The notes under the pieces were generated by a model that saw only the letters and a list, made by a program, of their open reading frames with translations, was not told where the DNA came from and did not search any database. Both the position numbers and the translations under genes were made by a program. From the sequence record OQ446694.1: a stretch of DNA of 64,000 nucleotides; one strand, given 5' to 3'. The stretch's first letter is position 1. The number at the start of each line of letters is the position of its first letter. The DNA comes from Escherichia phage Killian. Positions 28,433 to 64,000 of this stretch are shown here, in pieces.

Positions 28433-29944
28433 ATGACTGACATTAAAGTACATTTTTATGATTTTAGTCACGTGAGAATTGATTGCGAAGAAAGTACATT
28501 TCATGAACTCCGTGATTTCTTTAGCTTTGAAGCTGATGGGTATCGTTTTAATCCGAAATACAAATATGGCCACTGGGATGGACGAATTCGTCTTTTAGAT
28601 TATAATCGCCTTCTTCCATTCGGTTTAGTCGGGCAAATTAAAAAGTTCTGTGATAACTTTGGCTATAAAGCCTGGATTGACCCGCAAATTAACGAAAAAG
28701 AAGAATTATCAAGAAAAGATTTTGATGAATGGCTTTCTAAATTAGAAATCTATTCAGGAAATAAAAGAATTGAACCGCATTGGTATCAAAAAGATGCAGT
28801 GTTCGAAGGATTAGTTAATCGTCGTAGAATTCTTAATCTTCCAACATCCGCAGGTAAATCTTTAATTCAAGCTTTGCTCGCTCGGTATTATTTGGAAAAT
28901 TATGAAGGCAAAATTCTTATCATTGTTCCAACAACTGCTCTGACAACTCAGATGGCTGATGACTTTGTTGACTATCGTTTATTCAGTCATGCAATGATAA
29001 AGAAAATCGGCGGTGGAGCATCAAAAGATGATAAATATAAAAATGATGCACCGGTCGTTGTTGGTACATGGCAAACTGTAGTAAAACAACCAAAAGAATG
29101 GTTCTCACAGTTTGGAATGATGATGAATGATGAATGTCATCTTGCTACAGGAAAAAGTATTTCATCTATCATATCAGGTTTAAATAACTGTATGTTTAAA
29201 TTTGGTTTGTCTGGTTCATTGCGCGATGGCAAAGCTAATATCATGCAGTATGTTGGAATGTTCGGTGAAATATTTAAGCCAGTAACGACCTCTAAATTAA
29301 TGGAAGATGGACAAGTAACTGAGTTAAAAATTAATAGTATTTTTCTTCGCTATCCCGATGAGTTCACTACTAAATTAAAGGGAAAAACTTACCAAGAAGA
29401 AATAAAAATTATTACTGGGCTCAGTAAAAGAAATAAATGGATCGCTAAATTAGCTATTAAGCTTGCGCAAAAAGATGAAAATGCTTTTGTCATGTTTAAA
29501 CACGTATCGCACGGTAAAGCTATTTTCGATTTAATTAAAAATGAATACGATAAAGTTTATTACGTATCAGGGGAAGTTGATACCGAAACCCGCAATATAA
29601 TGAAAACCTTAGCTGAAAACGGTAAAGGAATAATTATAGTAGCTAGTTATGGTGTATTTTCTACCGGTATTTCAGTTAAAAATCTGCATCACGTTGTTTT
29701 AGCACACGGTGTTAAATCTAAAATTATTGTATTGCAAACAATAGGTCGCGTATTACGTAAGCATGGTTCTAAAACAATCGCAACAGTCTGGGACCTCATA
29801 GATGACGCGGGCGTAGTTTCTAAATCAAAAACATCTTCTAAAAAATACTCGCATTTAAACTATCTTTTAAAACATGGACTTGATCGTATTCAGCGTTATG
29901 CTGATGAGAAGTTTAATTATGTGATGAAAGAGGTTAAACTTTGA
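28433..29944 (+). CDS. uvsW: UvsW DNA/RNA helicase (SF2)
   Basis: 503 aa; Walker A PTSAGKS and DECH box. Confidence 0.95.
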   Translation: MTDIKVHFYDFSHVRIDCEESTFHELRDFFSFEADGYRFNPKYKYGHWDGRIRLLDYNRLLPFGLVGQIKKFCDNFGYKAWIDPQINEKEELSRKDFDEWLSKLEIYSGNKRIEPHWYQKDAVFEGLVNRRRILNLPTSAGKSLIQALLARYYLENYEGKILIIVPTTALTTQMADDFVDYRLFSHAMIKKIGGGASKDDKYKNDAPVVVGTWQTVVKQPKEWFSQFGMMMNDECHLATGKSISSIISGLNNCMFKFGLSGSLRDGKANIMQYVGMFGEIFKPVTTSKLMEDGQVTELKINSIFLRYPDEFTTKLKGKTYQEEIKIITGLSKRNKWIAKLAIKLAQKDENAFVMFKHVSHGKAIFDLIKNEYDKVYYVSGEVDTETRNIMKTLAENGKGIIIVASYGVFSTGISVKNLHHVVLAHGVKSKIIVLQTIGRVLRKHGSKTIATVWDLIDDAGVVSKSKTSSKKYSHLNYLLKHGLDRIQRYADEKFNYVMKEVKL

Positions 29945-30633
29945 ATTATAAATTAATATATGATAATTTAATTAATAGAGCCCAGAATCGGGCTCGCCTT
30001 AATGGATACACTGAAACTCATCATATAATTCCTAGATGTATGGGTGGTACAGATGATAAGTGTAATTTGGTAGAACTAACAGCTGAAGAGCATTTTATAG
30101 CTCATAAACTTTTAGCTAAAATTCATCCAAACCATTACGGTATAATTAAAGCCGTTATATGTATGGGAATGAATTCAAATACTCATGAAAGACACGTTAA
30201 TAAATCTTACGCCTGGGAACGTCGTAAAATGGCAAAACTTCAATCAGGTGAAGGTAATCCATTTTACGGAAAACACCATACGGAAGAACATAAACAATAT
30301 ATGTCAAAACTCATGAAAAATCGTCCAATTACGTGGGGAAGTAAAATTAGTAAAACTAAAAGAATGAACCCAACAAAATGGACTGAAGAAGCTAAAAGAT
30401 TGCATTCTATCAATCAATCAGGTAAAAATAATGGCATGTATGGAAGGAAACATTCCGCTAAATCTATTCAGAAAATTAAAGATAACATGCCAGATAATTC
30501 AGGAGCTAATAACCCAGCTGCTAAACCTATAGAAGTAAATGGTGTTAAGTATAAATGCATGAAAGATGCTTCTAAAGCTACTGGATTATCAATGTACAAA
30601 CTAAGAATACTTAGAAAAACAGTTAATTTATAA
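29941..30633 (+). CDS. free-standing HNH homing endonuclease (NUMOD3 repeats, C-terminal HTH)
   Basis: 230 aa; ETHHIIPRCMGG...NLVELTAEEHFIAH HNH motif; start is TTG overlapping the uvsW stop. Confidence 0.8.
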   Translation: MNYKLIYDNLINRAQNRARLNGYTETHHIIPRCMGGTDDKCNLVELTAEEHFIAHKLLAKIHPNHYGIIKAVICMGMNSNTHERHVNKSYAWERRKMAKLQSGEGNPFYGKHHTEEHKQYMSKLMKNRPITWGSKISKTKRMNPTKWTEEAKRLHSINQSGKNNGMYGRKHSAKSIQKIKDNMPDNSGANNPAAKPIEVNGVKYKCMKDASKATGLSMYKLRILRKTVNL

Positions 30634-56675: not shown

Positions 56676-57854
56676 TTAAAAATATTTTTTAAAACTCATC
56701 ATAACTTTATCATCAACATCATTATCAATCTGTGCAACAAGGTAAGATGACAGTTCTACTTCTTGTGGCGCGGATTGAACATTATCAGAATTAAGATATT
56801 CACGAATCCAAGGATATGGATGTTTAACCGGAGCATCGGTAATTGGGCATGGAAGACCGCACTGTTTCATACGAGATACAGTTAAGTAATCAATAAAGCT
56901 CCGCATGCTATTTGTATTTAATCCAGGAACATCACCATCTTTAAATAAATGAACTGCCCAGTCTTTTTCTTGACGGTTAACTTCCATGAAAATATCAACT
57001 GCTTCTTGTTCACACTCTTGAGCAATTTTAACCCATTCATCGCCATCAGTACCGGATTGAAGTTGACGAATAATATATTGGGTGCCTTTAAGGTGAAGCT
57101 GCTCATCACGTGCAATGAACTTCATAATCTTGGCATTACCTTCCATGATTTCCATGTTCTTATGGAAGTTAAAGGTACATGCAAAAGATACATAAAAACG
57201 AATAGCTTCTAAGGCATTAATAACGTGCAAACAGAGGTAAAGAGATTTCATTAGTGCTCGTTTAGCTTCGGCTTCTTGTTTAATAGCTCGATTTAAACGA
57301 AAAACAGCATCAGGAGATTCTTTAGCTAGTTCTGTAAATTCTTTAGCATTTTCCCATTCACGGGTTTTAGTCAGAACATCATCATAATAGCGACCGATAG
57401 ATTCAGCACGTTTCATGATAGCTTCATCTAGTACAATCTCATCAAATACCTTCGATGGATCAGTATAAAGATTTCGCATGATATGAGTATATGAACGACT
57501 GTGAATAGTTTCACTAAAAGTCCATGTAGCAACCCATGTATCAAGACTTGGGTCTGAAATTAATGACATAAGTACAGCAGATGGCGCACGACCCTGAATG
57601 CTATCTAGAAGTGATTGATACTTCAGGTTATTAGTAAAAATATCTTGCTGATACTGAGGAAGCTTGTTAAATTGTGCAGCATCCATCATCAAGTTTACTT
57701 CTTCAGGACGCCAAAAAAATGATAAAGATTTCTCAATAAGTTCTTCAAATACTCTATGCCGTTGAATATCATATCGAGCTAAACCCAATCCAGAACCAAA
57801 AAACATCGGCTCAGTTAAAATATTAACAGGGGATGTATTAAAAACTGTACTCAT
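56676..57854 (-). CDS. nrdB: ribonucleotide reductase small subunit, uninterrupted (no intron)
   Basis: 392-aa continuous ORF. Confidence 0.93.
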   Translation of the reverse strand: MSTVFNTSPVNILTEPMFFGSGLGLARYDIQRHRVFEELIEKSLSFFWRPEEVNLMMDAAQFNKLPQYQQDIFTNNLKYQSLLDSIQGRAPSAVLMSLISDPSLDTWVATWTFSETIHSRSYTHIMRNLYTDPSKVFDEIVLDEAIMKRAESIGRYYDDVLTKTREWENAKEFTELAKESPDAVFRLNRAIKQEAEAKRALMKSLYLCLHVINALEAIRFYVSFACTFNFHKNMEIMEGNAKIMKFIARDEQLHLKGTQYIIRQLQSGTDGDEWVKIAQECEQEAVDIFMEVNRQEKDWAVHLFKDGDVPGLNTNSMRSFIDYLTVSRMKQCGLPCPITDAPVKHPYPWIREYLNSDNVQSAPQEVELSSYLVAQIDNDVDDKVMMSFKKYF

Positions 57855-58492
57855 TTAGAATCCTTAAATTTACATTTATCATAATGCCATCTTAAAGCAT
57901 TGCCTTTATTAACTTTCTTGCCACAATGCGGACAAGGCGGATACTCTGTACCTTGCTTAGTTCTCAAAGAGATCAAATCACGAGTTTCTTTAGTATGAGG
58001 AACATCTCTTGTCGGAGAGATTGTACCATACATCGGATTAAGCACGCCGACTTTAGCAGCAGCTATATTCTTTTTAGCTTCTTCGGTTTTAGGTTTTCTC
58101 ATGCGAGCTAAATGCTCTTTGGTAAATTTCCTTCCTTTAAGAGCTCTACTTATCTTTTCTCTGGTTTCTATAGAAACTTCACGTCCTATAGCAGCTTCAG
58201 ATAAACGTCGTCTACCTAATTCGTATAGTTGAGAAGAAATTTTATATGAGCGATTTTTACCAGTCAAGCACATTAAACCAAAAGCTTTCTTTAATCCTGG
58301 CGTGTCATATATTTTACATAAAAGCCAATGAGCTATAAAATGCTCTCTACCTGTTAATTCAACTAAATTTTCTTTATCATCAGAACCTCCCATACATCTA
58401 GGGATTATATGATGAGTCTCTTTATATCCTAATAAAGGTTCCCGGGTTTTAGCCCGGGAAATTAAACTATTATATACGTTTTGATAATTCAT
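57851..58492 (-). CDS. mobE: HNH homing endonuclease between nrdA and nrdB (mobE-like)
   Basis: 213 aa; ETHHIIPRCMGG HNH motif, NUMOD3-like repeats, C-terminal CPHCGKK...C zinc finger; ATG overlaps nrdA TAA. Confidence 0.7.
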   Translation of the reverse strand: MNYQNVYNSLISRAKTREPLLGYKETHHIIPRCMGGSDDKENLVELTGREHFIAHWLLCKIYDTPGLKKAFGLMCLTGKNRSYKISSQLYELGRRRLSEAAIGREVSIETREKISRALKGRKFTKEHLARMRKPKTEEAKKNIAAAKVGVLNPMYGTISPTRDVPHTKETRDLISLRTKQGTEYPPCPHCGKKVNKGNALRWHYDKCKFKDSK

Positions 58493-60756
58493 TACAATTT
58501 ACACGCTGCGCAATCTTCAGCTTTTGGAGTTTCTATTTCATAATCATCAGTACCAGAACCATCGCGGGTATTATGATAATAGAAATTTTTTCCGCCAAAA
58601 TACCAAAAGTACAAAAGGTCATCAATCATTACAGACATTGGAACCTTTCCTTTTGGAAAAATCTGCGGGTCATAATATGTATTCGCTGAAGCTGATTGAC
58701 ATACCCATTTCAGCATAATAGCTACCTGCGTAAGATAAGGTTTATTACCTTTCTTAGCTAATTTCCACGTATAATCATAGAGGTCTATGTTATGTTCAAT
58801 ATTGGGCACGACTTGATTAAAGGAACCCTCTTTTGATTCTTTAACCGAGACTGGTCCACGTGGAGGCTCGATACCGTTTGTGCTGTTAGAAACTTGGGAA
58901 GATGACTCACATGGCATAAGTGCTGATAATGTGCTATTACGGATGCCAAAGAGCTTAAGGTCTTCCCGCAGCGACGACCAGTCACAAACGTATTTTGGAG
59001 CTGCGATTTGGTCAATCTTTTTATTGTACCAGTCGATAGGTAATTCGCCTCGAGACCAACGAGTGTCTGAATAATATTCGCAAGGTCCTTTTTCTTTGGC
59101 GAGCTTAATGGATGCTTTAATGAGTCCATACTGCAATCTCTCAAATAGTTCATGTGTTAAATCGTTAGCATCTTCATAAGAAGCAAAGTTACTTGCCAGC
59201 CAAGCTGCATAGTTAGTAACACCTACGCCAAGGTTTCGACGCTTTTTAGCTTTTTCTGCTTCAGGAACTGGATATCCTTGGTAATCCAACAGATTATCAA
59301 GAGCGCGAACTTGAACTTCTGCCAATTCATTAATTTTATCTTGGTCTTGCCAATCGAAGTTATCCAACACAAATGCAGATAACGTGCACAATCCAATTTC
59401 AGCATCAGGACTATTCACATCATTTGTTGGAATAGCAATTTCACAACACAAGTTACTCTGACGAATAGGTGCCTTTTCACGAATAAACGGAGTATAGTTA
59501 TTCGTATTATCAATGAACTGTACATAAATCCTTGCTGTTCCTGATCGTTCAGTCATGAGCAATTCAAATAGTTCACGGGCTTTAATACGCTTTTTACGAA
59601 TATTAGGATCTTTTTCTGCTGCTTCGTATAATTCACGGAAACGGTCTTGGTCTTTAAAATAAGAATAATAAAGTTCGCCACCCATTTCATGCGGACTAAA
59701 CAAAGTAATGTAATCGTTCTTTCCGAATCGTTCCATCATTAGGTCATTCAGCTGAACACCATAATCCATATGACGGATACGGTTTTCTTCTACGCCTTTG
59801 TTATTTTTCAAAACGAGAAGATTTTCAACTTCCAAATGCCAAATAGGATAATAAGCAGTAGCAGCGCCGCCACGAATTCCGCCCTGTGAACATGATTTAA
59901 CAGCAGTCTGAAAATGTTTCCAAAAAGGAATAACACCAGTATGACGCACTTCACCTGTGCCAATCTTAGAACCTTCGGCACGAATCATACCAACGTTAAT
60001 ACCAGTTCCAGCGCGTTTGGAGATATATTCAACAATTGAAGCAGAAGCTTTGTTAATAGACTTCAGCGAATCACCTGCTTCAATAACAACGCATGAACTA
60101 AACTGCCGAGTTGGAGTACGGCAACCAGCCATAATAGGAGTTGGTAATGAAATCTGTCGAGTAGATACTGCTTCATAAAAACGAATAACATGTTTTAATC
60201 TATCAACAGGTTCATCTTGATGCAGTGCCATTCCAATAGTCATAAATGCAAACTGCGGAGTTTCATAAATTTGACCAGTGGTTTTATCTTTAACTAGATA
60301 TTTTTCTTTTAATTGCATTGCCCCGGAATAAGTAAATTCCATATCCCGCTCATGCTTAATTTTTGATTCTAAAAATGTAATTTCTTCGGCAGAATATTTT
60401 GACAACAATTCAGGGTCGTATTTACCTTCATTTACACAGTAAGAAATATGGTCAATAAATGAACGGGGCTCATACTGCCCGTAAACATGCTTACGAAGAG
60501 CGAACATTAAACAGCGTGCAGCTACATATTGATAATCAGGCTCTTCAACTGAAATAGAATTCGCGGCAGCCTTAATTACAATAGTTTGAATGTCATCAGT
60601 GGTCATTCCATCACGGAGATATGATTTAATATTTTCATATAATTCATAAGGATCTACAGATGTTCCTTCAGCTGCCCAAGATAAAACTTTAATAATTTTT
60701 TGCGGGTCAAAGCTCTGAGAAACACCACTACTTTTGATAACATTAATTAATTGCAT
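58492..60756 (-). CDS. nrdA: ribonucleotide reductase large subunit
   Basis: 754 aa; N-terminal ATP-cone and class I RNR catalytic region. Confidence 0.95.
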   Translation of the reverse strand: MQLINVIKSSGVSQSFDPQKIIKVLSWAAEGTSVDPYELYENIKSYLRDGMTTDDIQTIVIKAAANSISVEEPDYQYVAARCLMFALRKHVYGQYEPRSFIDHISYCVNEGKYDPELLSKYSAEEITFLESKIKHERDMEFTYSGAMQLKEKYLVKDKTTGQIYETPQFAFMTIGMALHQDEPVDRLKHVIRFYEAVSTRQISLPTPIMAGCRTPTRQFSSCVVIEAGDSLKSINKASASIVEYISKRAGTGINVGMIRAEGSKIGTGEVRHTGVIPFWKHFQTAVKSCSQGGIRGGAATAYYPIWHLEVENLLVLKNNKGVEENRIRHMDYGVQLNDLMMERFGKNDYITLFSPHEMGGELYYSYFKDQDRFRELYEAAEKDPNIRKKRIKARELFELLMTERSGTARIYVQFIDNTNNYTPFIREKAPIRQSNLCCEIAIPTNDVNSPDAEIGLCTLSAFVLDNFDWQDQDKINELAEVQVRALDNLLDYQGYPVPEAEKAKKRRNLGVGVTNYAAWLASNFASYEDANDLTHELFERLQYGLIKASIKLAKEKGPCEYYSDTRWSRGELPIDWYNKKIDQIAAPKYVCDWSSLREDLKLFGIRNSTLSALMPCESSSQVSNSTNGIEPPRGPVSVKESKEGSFNQVVPNIEHNIDLYDYTWKLAKKGNKPYLTQVAIMLKWVCQSASANTYYDPQIFPKGKVPMSVMIDDLLYFWYFGGKNFYYHNTRDGSGTDDYEIETPKAEDCAACKL

Positions 60757-61073
60757 AAGTCCTCAACTTGAAAATCGTCTTTAAACAATCGGTTAACTAT
60801 ATGAGCTATTATATCACCATGACACGGCTTTGGTTTACATGTGCATCCTAGCCTCATTCCACGTAAAGGCTCTAAATGTGCTTTAGTTATTTCTCCGGAT
60901 TTAATTCGACGTATAAAATCTTTTTTGAATAATTCAATGGCAGCCTCCCGGCTGCCAGCATCTTTACCGACGTAATTTCCCCAAAATGTACCACGGTGAA
61001 TATTAACATCAAAGTCGGATTTATATTTATTCACTACCTGGCATAGACGGCCCGCGCGGTGATAATTCGTCAT
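60747..61073 (-). CDS. hypothetical Cys-rich protein (nrdA.1-like)
   Basis: 108-aa ORF with [13 protein letters not shown]. Confidence 0.6.
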
Positions 61074-61290
61074 ATTGTTTTTCCGTTAAAACAGTAATAT
61101 CATAGTAACAATCTGAAGAAGTTTTAACTGTAGAAATTTTATTATCAAAATACTCACGAGTCATTTTATGAGTATAATATTTTTTGCCGTAAATGATAAT
61201 AGGCTGATTTGGTCCTGGAACTTCTAACTCACTTGGGTTAGGAAGTGTAAAAAGAACTGCACCAGAAGTATCTTTAAATCGTAAAATCAT
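61027..61290 (-). CDS. hypothetical protein (nrdA.2-like)
   Basis: 87-aa ORF. Confidence 0.55.
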
Positions 61291-61313
61291 ATATCCTCAC
61301 AATTGATAATTAA

Positions 61314-62174
61314 TTACACCGCCATTTTTCCTTTAATAGGAGGGTGTGATTCGTAACCTTTAAGAACGAAATCTTTAGGCCTGAGTTTAAGAACATATTC
61401 CAATTGTTCTTTAGTAGAAAGATAGCGGAATTTATAAGGCAATCCGCCTATTACCAGTTCACAAAGCTCTTTAGGTTCACGACGTAAAATTTCTTTACAT
61501 TGTTCTACGTGATTCATATAGATATGAGTATTACCACCAGAAAATATCAAATCTCCTGGAATAAGATTACACATCTTAGCTACAATATGAACTAACGCAG
61601 CATATGATGCAATATTAAATGGAAGACCGAGGAAAACATCTACTGATCGTTGATACCACTGCAAATCCAAATAGCCATTACGCACATTAAACTGATAGAA
61701 CATATGACAAGGCGGTAATGCCATATATTTAAGTTCAGCTGGATTCCATGCTGAAACAATTTGACGTCTATCATTTGGCAGTTTTTTAATACGATTAACA
61801 ACTTCTACAATTTGGTCTACACCGCCAAAATCACGCCATTGTTTTCCATAAATTGGACCAAGTTCACCGCTATGATATCCTAAATCTTTTGCTTGATTTT
61901 CGTAATTTTCGTCCCAGACTGTTTTGCCTTGAATTAATGAATCATGCTGAATTAATCGTAAATCATTGACATTTGTGCTTCCTGATAAAAACCAAAGTAG
62001 CTCAGCAATGCAAGCTTTCCAGGCGAGCTTCTTAGTTGTTACTGCAGGAAAACCTTTACTTAAATCCCAACGTAATTTAGTACCGAACAAAGCAATTGTT
62101 CCTGTGCCTGTTCGGTCATCAGTTTCATAGCCATTTTCAAAAATGTCTTTAATTAAATCTTGGTATTGTTTCAT
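61314..62174 (-). CDS. td: thymidylate synthase, uninterrupted (no group I intron)
   Basis: 286-aa continuous ORF; T4 td intron position maps to 61625/61626 and is unoccupied. Confidence 0.95.
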   Translation of the reverse strand: MKQYQDLIKDIFENGYETDDRTGTGTIALFGTKLRWDLSKGFPAVTTKKLAWKACIAELLWFLSGSTNVNDLRLIQHDSLIQGKTVWDENYENQAKDLGYHSGELGPIYGKQWRDFGGVDQIVEVVNRIKKLPNDRRQIVSAWNPAELKYMALPPCHMFYQFNVRNGYLDLQWYQRSVDVFLGLPFNIASYAALVHIVAKMCNLIPGDLIFSGGNTHIYMNHVEQCKEILRREPKELCELVIGGLPYKFRYLSTKEQLEYVLKLRPKDFVLKGYESHPPIKGKMAV

Positions 62175-62219
62175 TTAGTACCTTATATAAATTATAATAC
62201 ATTTTATGAAGCTAAATAA

Positions 62220-62582
62220 TCAATACGGTTTAGCGTCAAATTTTCTTTCAATTTCAGGCGTAAAATACAATTCTTTACCACGCTTGGAAAAGCGACCAAT
62301 AATATGATAATTATTCTCATCAAACGTGATATTGCCAATATCCATAGCTTTCAACCAAATATCGATATTTCTATCCAGCTTTATATCAAAATTCCAATAC
62401 GGAGAACTATTACCAAAAATACTGCAAGCGGATTCAGTGCAATAACTGCTGCTATAAATCTTGTCTTTGGGAACTACTAATTGATAGACGCCTTTAATAA
62501 ACTGAGGACCCTGCCATTTTGGTTGTTTCGCGTCTTTTTCTAATAGAATAGGGTAATAATTAAAGTTCATATTTTCCGCCAC
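62220..62582 (-). CDS. hypothetical protein between frd and td
   Basis: 120-aa ORF with no recognisable motif, filling a position where T4 frd and td overlap. Confidence 0.6.
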   Translation of the reverse strand: MAENMNFNYYPILLEKDAKQPKWQGPQFIKGVYQLVVPKDKIYSSSYCTESACSIFGNSSPYWNFDIKLDRNIDIWLKAMDIGNITFDENNYHIIGRFSKRGKELYFTPEIERKFDAKPY

Positions 62583-62590
62583 GCGTTATT

Positions 62591-63175
<585 letters not shown>

Positions 63176-63418
63176 TCAAAACCCCCTTTCAATAAACCAT
63201 TCAGTGGCTTTATTAGCATCAAAGAATAATTCTTCATATGTCTTTTCTTTGTTTTCAAAGACTGTCACACAAACGCGTTGACATTCTCCGCAGTATTCTT
63301 CTGACATACTCAAAGCGTCAGAAAACATTTCATTAAATTCATTTAAATCAGGATTATACAAAGCGTTAAAAATTGCATAATCGAATTCATCATTCATAAA
63401 TTCAAATACAAAAATCAT
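63176..63418 (-). CDS. hypothetical protein (frd.1-like)
   Basis: 80-aa ORF. Confidence 0.55.
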   Translation of the reverse strand: MIFVFEFMNDEFDYAIFNALYNPDLNEFNEMFSDALSMSEEYCGECQRVCVTVFENKEKTYEELFFDANKATEWFIERGF

Positions 63419-63426
63419 ATTATCTC

Positions 63427-63762
63427 CTAATATAAAGGATCGGGAACATATCCACTGGCTTTAATCATTTTAATTAACGTTAACATTCCTTTATTAACTG
63501 CTCGTGAGATTTCATCAAAAACTTCATCACTAAAAAGTTCTAACACACCCTTCTGAACTTTTAATTTACATCCAACAATTTCGTCATCACCTATAGTAAA
63601 TTCGTTTCCGCCAATTCCACCGAAAAACTTAATTACGCCAGTTAACTGTCTTCCACGAGAATATGGGTCGTGTGATAAAGTAATATGAGTCACCCCAGGT
63701 ACAGTTTTAAATTGGCAGCGGATATTTACTTGGGCAATTCCAGTTACGTGAATGTCAGACAT
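63427..63762 (-). CDS. hypothetical protein (frd.2-like)
   Basis: 111-aa ORF with GAGG RBS. Confidence 0.6.
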   Translation of the reverse strand: MSDIHVTGIAQVNIRCQFKTVPGVTHITLSHDPYSRGRQLTGVIKFFGGIGGNEFTIGDDEIVGCKLKVQKGVLELFSDEVFDEISRAVNKGMLTLIKMIKASGYVPDPLY

Positions 63763-63772
63763 AATATTTTCC

Positions 63773-64000
63773 TCAAACAGACTTTTTCACAATTTTCCAA
63801 TCAGCTTTAAACTGATTGACGTCAGAATGGTAAATCCAGAATCCTGCGCTTTCTCCATCCTCATAAAGAGGGCATCCATCGCATTCATCTTCCCATCCCA
63901 TATCACGTAAAAGTTGTTCAGCTTTTTCAACAAGTTCAGAATCTTTACCGATGATATTAAAATACCACTTACCTCTAACTTCTGAATCTTTAATGCTCTG
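63773..64000 (-). CDS. hypothetical protein, 3' part only (5' end beyond window; frd.3-like)
   Basis: hand translation of - strand gives an open frame ending ...DWKIVKKSV-stop at 63773-63775. Confidence 0.45.
   Translation of the reverse strand, partial: QSIKDSEVRGKWYFNIIGKDSELVEKAEQLLRDMGWEDECDGCPLYEDGESAGFWIYHSDVNQFKADWKIVKKSV

Follow-up and report, generated by a model that had tools for sequence, protein, structure and literature searches.

The td gene of Escherichia phage Killian, a T4-like phage of the genus Tequatrovirus, seems to be an ordinary intron-less td of this genus, with an empty and probably cleavable I-TevI site of the kind found in phage T2. The silent differences that separate it from T4 at the junction would be standing polymorphism, in which the bases at -6 and -4 (-1 being the last base of exon 1 and +1 the first of exon 2) are characteristic of alleles without the intron. 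We give this reading, which is drawn from comparison of sequences, a probability of about 85%. An intron-less td with an empty homing site is already known biology, and the invasion of such alleles by the td intron of T4 has been a textbook example from the late 1980s onwards.

The td junction of Killian and its I-TevI site

In the window (the whole stretch of DNA analysed, 64 kb), both the list of open reading frames (ORFs) and the sequence itself give td as a single ORF of 861 nt on the minus strand (Table 1). Read on that strand from 61652 to 61600, the junction is CAACGATCAGTAGATGTTTTCCTCGGT on the exon-1 side and CTTCCATTTAATATTGCATCATATGC on the exon-2 side, and it is translated as QRSVDVFLG/LPFNIASY (the slash marking the insertion point). 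When td is aligned to that of T4, exon 1 ends at 61626 and exon 2 starts at 61625 with nothing in between, and the T4 insert, of 1017 nt according to the annotation of its record (NC_000866), falls at this point. The continuous 286-residue frame, the 53-nt junction with its peptide and the empty insertion site had all been described in the original prediction, and they were recovered here exactly. The same alignment revealed no insert starting with TAATT[G/T/A]AGGCCT after the exon-1 end GGT of Killian td, and no I-TevI homologue was found in the window by tblastn with the T4 protein. A scan of the whole window with Rfam at gathering thresholds returned no group I intron; this result is uninformative, because the T4 positive control failed in the same scan, and ORF continuity is relied on instead. 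In that control (T4 positions 138000-148000), Rfam at gathering thresholds was blind to the known td and nrdB introns, so that a negative scan of this type is uninformative for ORF-containing phage introns. The nrdB gene of Killian is likewise uninterrupted.

Table 1. Coordinates of td, of the I-TevI site elements and of neighbouring or related ORFs in the window; base changes are written from T4 to Killian.
Feature	Position	Strand	Remarks
td (thymidylate synthase) CDS	61314..62174	-	uninterrupted, 286 aa plus stop codon
38-bp I-TevI homing-site equivalent (-27 to +11)	61615..61652	-	from T4 junction alignment; 5 positions differ
CAACG cleavage motif	61648..61652	-	intact, same as T4 -27..-23
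20-bp primary I-TevI binding-region equivalent (-10..+10)	61616..61635	-	16/20 identical to T4
Empty intron insertion site	61625..61626	-	from T4 td alignment
Exon heptamer CCTCGGT (-7..-1)	61626..61632	-	holds -6 T>C (61631) and -4 G>C (61629)
Span with the other four differences from T4	61608..61647	-	-22 C>A (61647); +3 A>T (61623); +6 G>A (61620); +18 G>A (61608)
frd	62591..63172	-	
120-aa ORF	62220..62582	-	between frd and td
nrdA	58492..60756	-	
213-aa ORF	57851..58492	-	between nrdA and nrdB
nrdB	56676..57854		uninterrupted
230-aa HNH-like free-standing ORF	29941..30633	+	starts at the stop codon of the 503-aa ORF
503-aa ORF	28433..29944		

The I-TevI endonuclease recognizes a site of 38 bp, with a 20-bp binding region centred on the insertion site, and cuts 23 and 25 nt upstream of the latter at 5'-CA^AC_vG-3' (PMC2988022). 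The first and fifth bases of the cleavage motif, C1 and G5, are critical (5'-CNNNG-3', CAACG being the native motif; PMC5009752), and the linker of the enzyme prefers a T at position 7, the second base of the DNA spacer (PMC12774661). In Killian, CAACG is found at -27 to -23 with no insertion or deletion up to the insertion site, i.e., 23/25 nt upstream as in T4, and nicks are predicted from the sequence between 61649 and 61648 on the coding strand and between 61651 and 61650 on the other strand. Position 6 differs (CAACGAT in Killian versus CAACGCT in T4), and position 7 (61646) is still T. The T4 junction is thus like that of Killian in its peptide, in the place of its CAACG, in its T at position 7 and in its spacing; the T4 genome is itself immune to I-TevI cutting, because the intron occupies its site.

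Compared with the spliced exons of T4 (NC_000866), 47 of the 53 junction bases of Killian are identical. Five synonymous changes had been predicted for this stretch; synonymous they are, without exception, but the alignment with the T4 exon junction gives six. Five of the six are placed within the 38-bp site if its limits are -27 and +11, as we infer from the description of the site in a review (PMC2988022), and those inside the 20-bp binding-region equivalent are at -6, -4, +3 and +6, with T2 having five differences from T4 in the same region.

Phage T2, the natural recipient in crosses with T4, is one of the closest known systems; its td is also uninterrupted and has the same gene neighbourhood, including an extra small ORF between frd and td. 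Over the homing-site stretch, T2 and Killian are identical at 51 of 53 positions and share -22A, -6C, +3T, +6A, +18A and CAACG, the two exceptions being -7T and -4T in T2 (TTT CTT GGT), where Killian has C and C (TTC CTC GGT); in all, the T2 site has seven differences from T4, and 40 of 861 positions differ between T2 and Killian over the whole td. In crosses of T4 with T2, the ratio at which I-TevI was inherited was 2.0 +/- 0.3 times that of the input (PMC2790892). Since Killian td has no intron, carries CAACG at its native distance and has a site nearly identical to that of T2, which is invaded by the T4 intron, we consider it a likely recipient for td-intron homing, by analogy and from sequence, and the role of potential recipient proposed in the original prediction is plausible. 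A more distant parallel is I-BmoI, likewise a GIY-YIG intron endonuclease, which acts on the homologous and functionally critical thymidylate synthase stretch in thyA of Bacillus mojavensis (PMC5009752). This system differs in host gene, intron and cleavage motif (GCCCG, with only G5 critical), and it serves as an analogy only.

The substitutions at the junction are no denser than elsewhere in the gene. Killian and T4 differ at 53 of 861 td positions, with identities of 95% in exon 1 and 92% in exon 2 and 12 amino-acid differences. Clustering of substitutions at the homing site was considered and rejected by a sliding-window count, as 156 of the 809 53-nt windows of td (19%) have at least six differences from T4 (binomial P 0.11). 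The suggestion that the silent substitutions tune cleavage thus finds no support, because their density at the site equals that of the rest of td; four of them, besides, are found beside resident introns, and the remaining two are explained by intron pairing and co-conversion (see below). From the sequences, the six silent differences are best taken as standing synonymous polymorphism, normal population variation with no special adaptation.

Distribution of the junction alleles among related phages

The region 58000-64000 of Killian is approximately 94-96% identical to phages a48, T6, RB3 and others, and the closest database match to its td is that of phage BF15 (97.0% identity, none being higher). 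The exact 53-nt junction is present in 11 phage records, among them Sf21, CM8, vB_EcoM_SP1, phage 132, S1P5QW, ESh28, SH-2, Ptacy1496 and UoN_LDJ77_1. Phages with this identical stretch also have an intron-less td and differ slightly from Killian in the rest of the gene (e.g., 30 of 861 positions in SP1). A further 109 records, including T2, are one or two positions away. Taking records as they stand, with RefSeq/GenBank duplicates counted and the records phylogenetically related, td is in one piece (at least 80% at one place) in approximately 428 of the 612 that bear it, the full-length td intron is present in 197 and the exon-1/intron junction in 188. The intron-less td is the commonest state in the related phages, at roughly two thirds of records.

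The allele comparison is based on 22 alleles that were read and on probe counts, with the GenBank phage collection as the population base. Fourteen of the alleles bear an intron, which is of full length in nine (T4, a48, T6, ECO07P3, Lv5cm, AV115, CGG4-1, Ursula and one IMG/VR genome) and devoid of an ORF, with 262-445 nt, in five (e11/2, C2-3, BYEP01, PD112 and 215Ecol030PP); the other eight are intron-less Tequatrovirus alleles (Killian, SP1, BF15, T2, RB27 and three IMG/VR contigs). In IMG/VR, a degenerate junction scan based on the peptide gave, among the matches listed, mostly unrelated thymidylate synthases and few close relatives, and a more specific junction pattern gave two loci.

Among the six differences from T4, only -6C/-4C (Leu CTC versus TTG in T4) tracks intron absence. 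The bases -22A, +3T, +6A and +18A are found in most sampled intron-less alleles and, in a48, C2-3 and BYEP01, around a resident td intron, so that it is T4 that has the minority state at these positions. Exon 1 ends in TTC TT[G/A] GGT in all 14 intron-bearing alleles (heptamer CTTGGGT or CTTAGGT), whereas -6C together with C or T at -4 occurs in 8/8 intron-less Tequatrovirus alleles and in 0/14 intron-bearing ones. The intron-bearing C2-3 differs from Killian only at -6 and -4 within -99 to +27, and the same two bases are the only differences in BYEP01 within -36 to +29 and in T6 within -51 to +2. As a side observation, exon 1 ends in GGC rather than GGT (-1C) in RB27 and in another intron-less allele, a change that would abolish the U.G wobble pair at the 5' splice site, kept by 14/14 intron-bearing alleles.

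Database probes gave the same picture. With a chimeric probe made of the exon-1 end of Killian and the 5' end of the T4 intron, the search for an intron-bearing CTC allele returned 186 full-length matches, the best of them with 2 mismatches (two unlisted matches in the band of at least 99% identity being presumed to be the two partial matches), and a 36-nt probe with no possible match other than an intron-bearing CTC allele had zero hits in 50,697 records. Within Tequatrovirus td, the exon-1 end thus serves as a marker, TTG/TTA-GGT indicating presence of the intron and CTC/CTT-GG[T/C] its absence. The marker is valid in this genus only, because intron-less alleles with TTG or TTA occur in more distant T4-like genera.

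P1 pairing and explanations of the exon-1 end

In group I introns in general, the 5' splice site is defined by the helix P1 (PMC3984707). In the td intron, the last seven bases of exon 1 (CUUGGGU) pair with intron positions 9-15 (GCCUGAG), and all seven pairs are standard in each of the five exon/guide haplotypes represented by the 14 intron-bearing alleles. In Lv5cm and AV115, -4A in the exon is coupled with changes in the guide sequence that leave P1 fully paired. The exon end of T4, TTGGGT, pairs with the intron guide, whereas CTCGGT of Killian does not: the Killian heptamer (CCUCGGU) opposite the T4 guide has 5/7 pairs, two being lost, the in-register helix goes from -6.4 kcal/mol to +1.2 kcal/mol, and the best fold is then one that pairs out of register. 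The covariation, at 100% pairing, consists of one-sided changes only (wobble to Watson-Crick), and its shuffle control gave no information; the case for P1 is therefore made mainly by what is established for group I introns, and we take our pairing data as consistency with P1, short of proof. The exon-end marker described above is, at the sequence level, consistent with a P1 pairing constraint and with co-conversion. Separately, position +3 of exon 2 and base 6 of the intron often fit the third pair of a possible P10 helix (A6:U in Ursula, U6:A in CGG4-1 and AV115, G6:U in the a48 type), with a mismatch in T4, T6, PD112 and Lv5cm; +3T of Killian would pair (G.U) with the T4 intron.

Two processes would then account for the exon-1 end. 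For splicing, the last seven exon-1 bases of intron-bearing alleles would have to pair with the internal guide sequence, which would hold these alleles at TTG/TTA-GGT and leave the intron-less ones free to use other leucine codons. In addition, flanking exon sequence is co-converted on homing (PMC2988022), and, as -6 and -4 are located downstream of the I-TevI cut (-23/-25) and upstream of the insertion site, donor sequence would replace them. The P1 constraint and co-conversion together explain the association of these bases with intron absence without selection on cleavage. In a co-infection of Killian with an I-TevI-positive phage, the enzyme would be expected to bind around the 20-bp region (61616-61635) and to cut CAACG at 61648-61652, and repair would copy the donor intron together with TTGGGT.

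We considered whether the Killian allele might be partly or fully resistant to I-TevI, the silent changes, and above all -6C/-4C, having been selected for lower binding or cleavage and so keeping the intron out of the phage. That -6C and a -4 pyrimidine are associated without exception with intron absence in the alleles read, in agreement with the database probes, would be equally expected if these bases lowered I-TevI activity; four of the 20 primary binding-region bases differ from T4, and Killian has -4C where T2 has -4T. Nevertheless, T2, which carries -7T, -6C and -4T together with the same -22A, +3T, +6A and +18A, was efficiently invaded in the T4 x T2 crosses (PMC2790892), and a review describes I-TevI as tolerating base changes in its site in general, and as binding with comparable affinity an operator that matches the homing site at only 15 of 20 positions (PMC2988022). 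C1, G5, the T at position 7 and the spacing are, moreover, intact in Killian, the substitution density is that of the gene average, and the association itself is fully accounted for by the P1 constraint and co-conversion; resistance selected in this manner therefore seems very unlikely. A somewhat less improbable idea, to which we still give little credence, is that the leucine codons CTC and CTT act as a partial barrier to invasion, being incompatible with P1 and maybe lowering I-TevI binding, and are thus more than a passive marker. As alleles with these codons cannot form P1, co-conversion would have to extend over at least the final six bases of exon 1 for homing to leave a td that can be spliced.

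The empty site could also have arisen by precise loss of a former td intron, e.g., by recombination with the cDNA of a spliced mRNA, rather than by the gene never having been invaded. Related phages commonly carry td introns of 262-445 nt without an ORF, which shows that decay of the element does take place in this group. A precise loss would, however, leave the intron-linked TTGGGT behind, and Killian has CTCGGT; furthermore, a converse probe of the a48 type, in which TTGGGT is joined to exon 2 of Killian, retrieved 130 intron-less records and no exact match. Loss through recombination with an intron-less phage would, for its part, look identical to the never-invaded state. We regard precise loss as the least probable of the explanations considered, with hardly any weight, and retain the reading of Killian td as an ordinary intron-less allele with an empty, probably cleavable site of the T2 kind.

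Gene neighbourhood and meaning of the allele

Along the minus strand, frd is followed by the 120-aa ORF, td, the homologues of nrdA.2 and nrdA.1, and nrdA (Table 1). The 120-aa ORF lies where frd and td overlap in T4. As a candidate homing endonuclease it had no Pfam match, its only assignment being to phrog_1928, a family of unknown function. A hypothetical-protein ORF of similar size is present at the frd-td gap in T2, T6, RB27, BF15, SP1 and a48, and the one at this place in phage Ursula is labelled phrog 1928.

Two further ORFs resemble the T4 HNH endonuclease MobE. In the 213-aa ORF between nrdA and nrdB, the first ~127 residues are 56% identical to T4 MobE and the last 83 are 98.8% identical to T4 NrdB.1, one ORF spanning two genes annotated in T4; the annotations of T6 and a48 have a mobE/homing endonuclease of 642 bp at this position. 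The 230-aa HNH-like ORF is 51% identical to T4 MobE over its N-terminal 105 residues.

Among the intron-bearing phages, the td introns of 262-445 nt are located at the T4 position, have the I-TevI ORF deleted or truncated and are still preceded by the exon-1 end TTGGGT (e11/2, C2-3, PD112, BYEP01 and 215Ecol030PP); they look like a decayed stage of the homing-endonuclease cycle. Exon 1 of td in phage 215Ecol030PP also has an in-frame tandem duplication of 141 nt, by which residues QHDSLIQ...GGVDQI occur twice, and which may be real or an assembly artefact.

The significance of the Killian allele in itself is small, as it is shared exactly or nearly so with many sequenced phages. In Tequatrovirus td, the exon-end marker could separate never-invaded alleles from precise intron losses. 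If the leucine-codon barrier were true, it could be part of the reason why about two thirds of the sequenced Tequatroviruses lack the intron and why the I-TevI cut is placed upstream of where the intron inserts.
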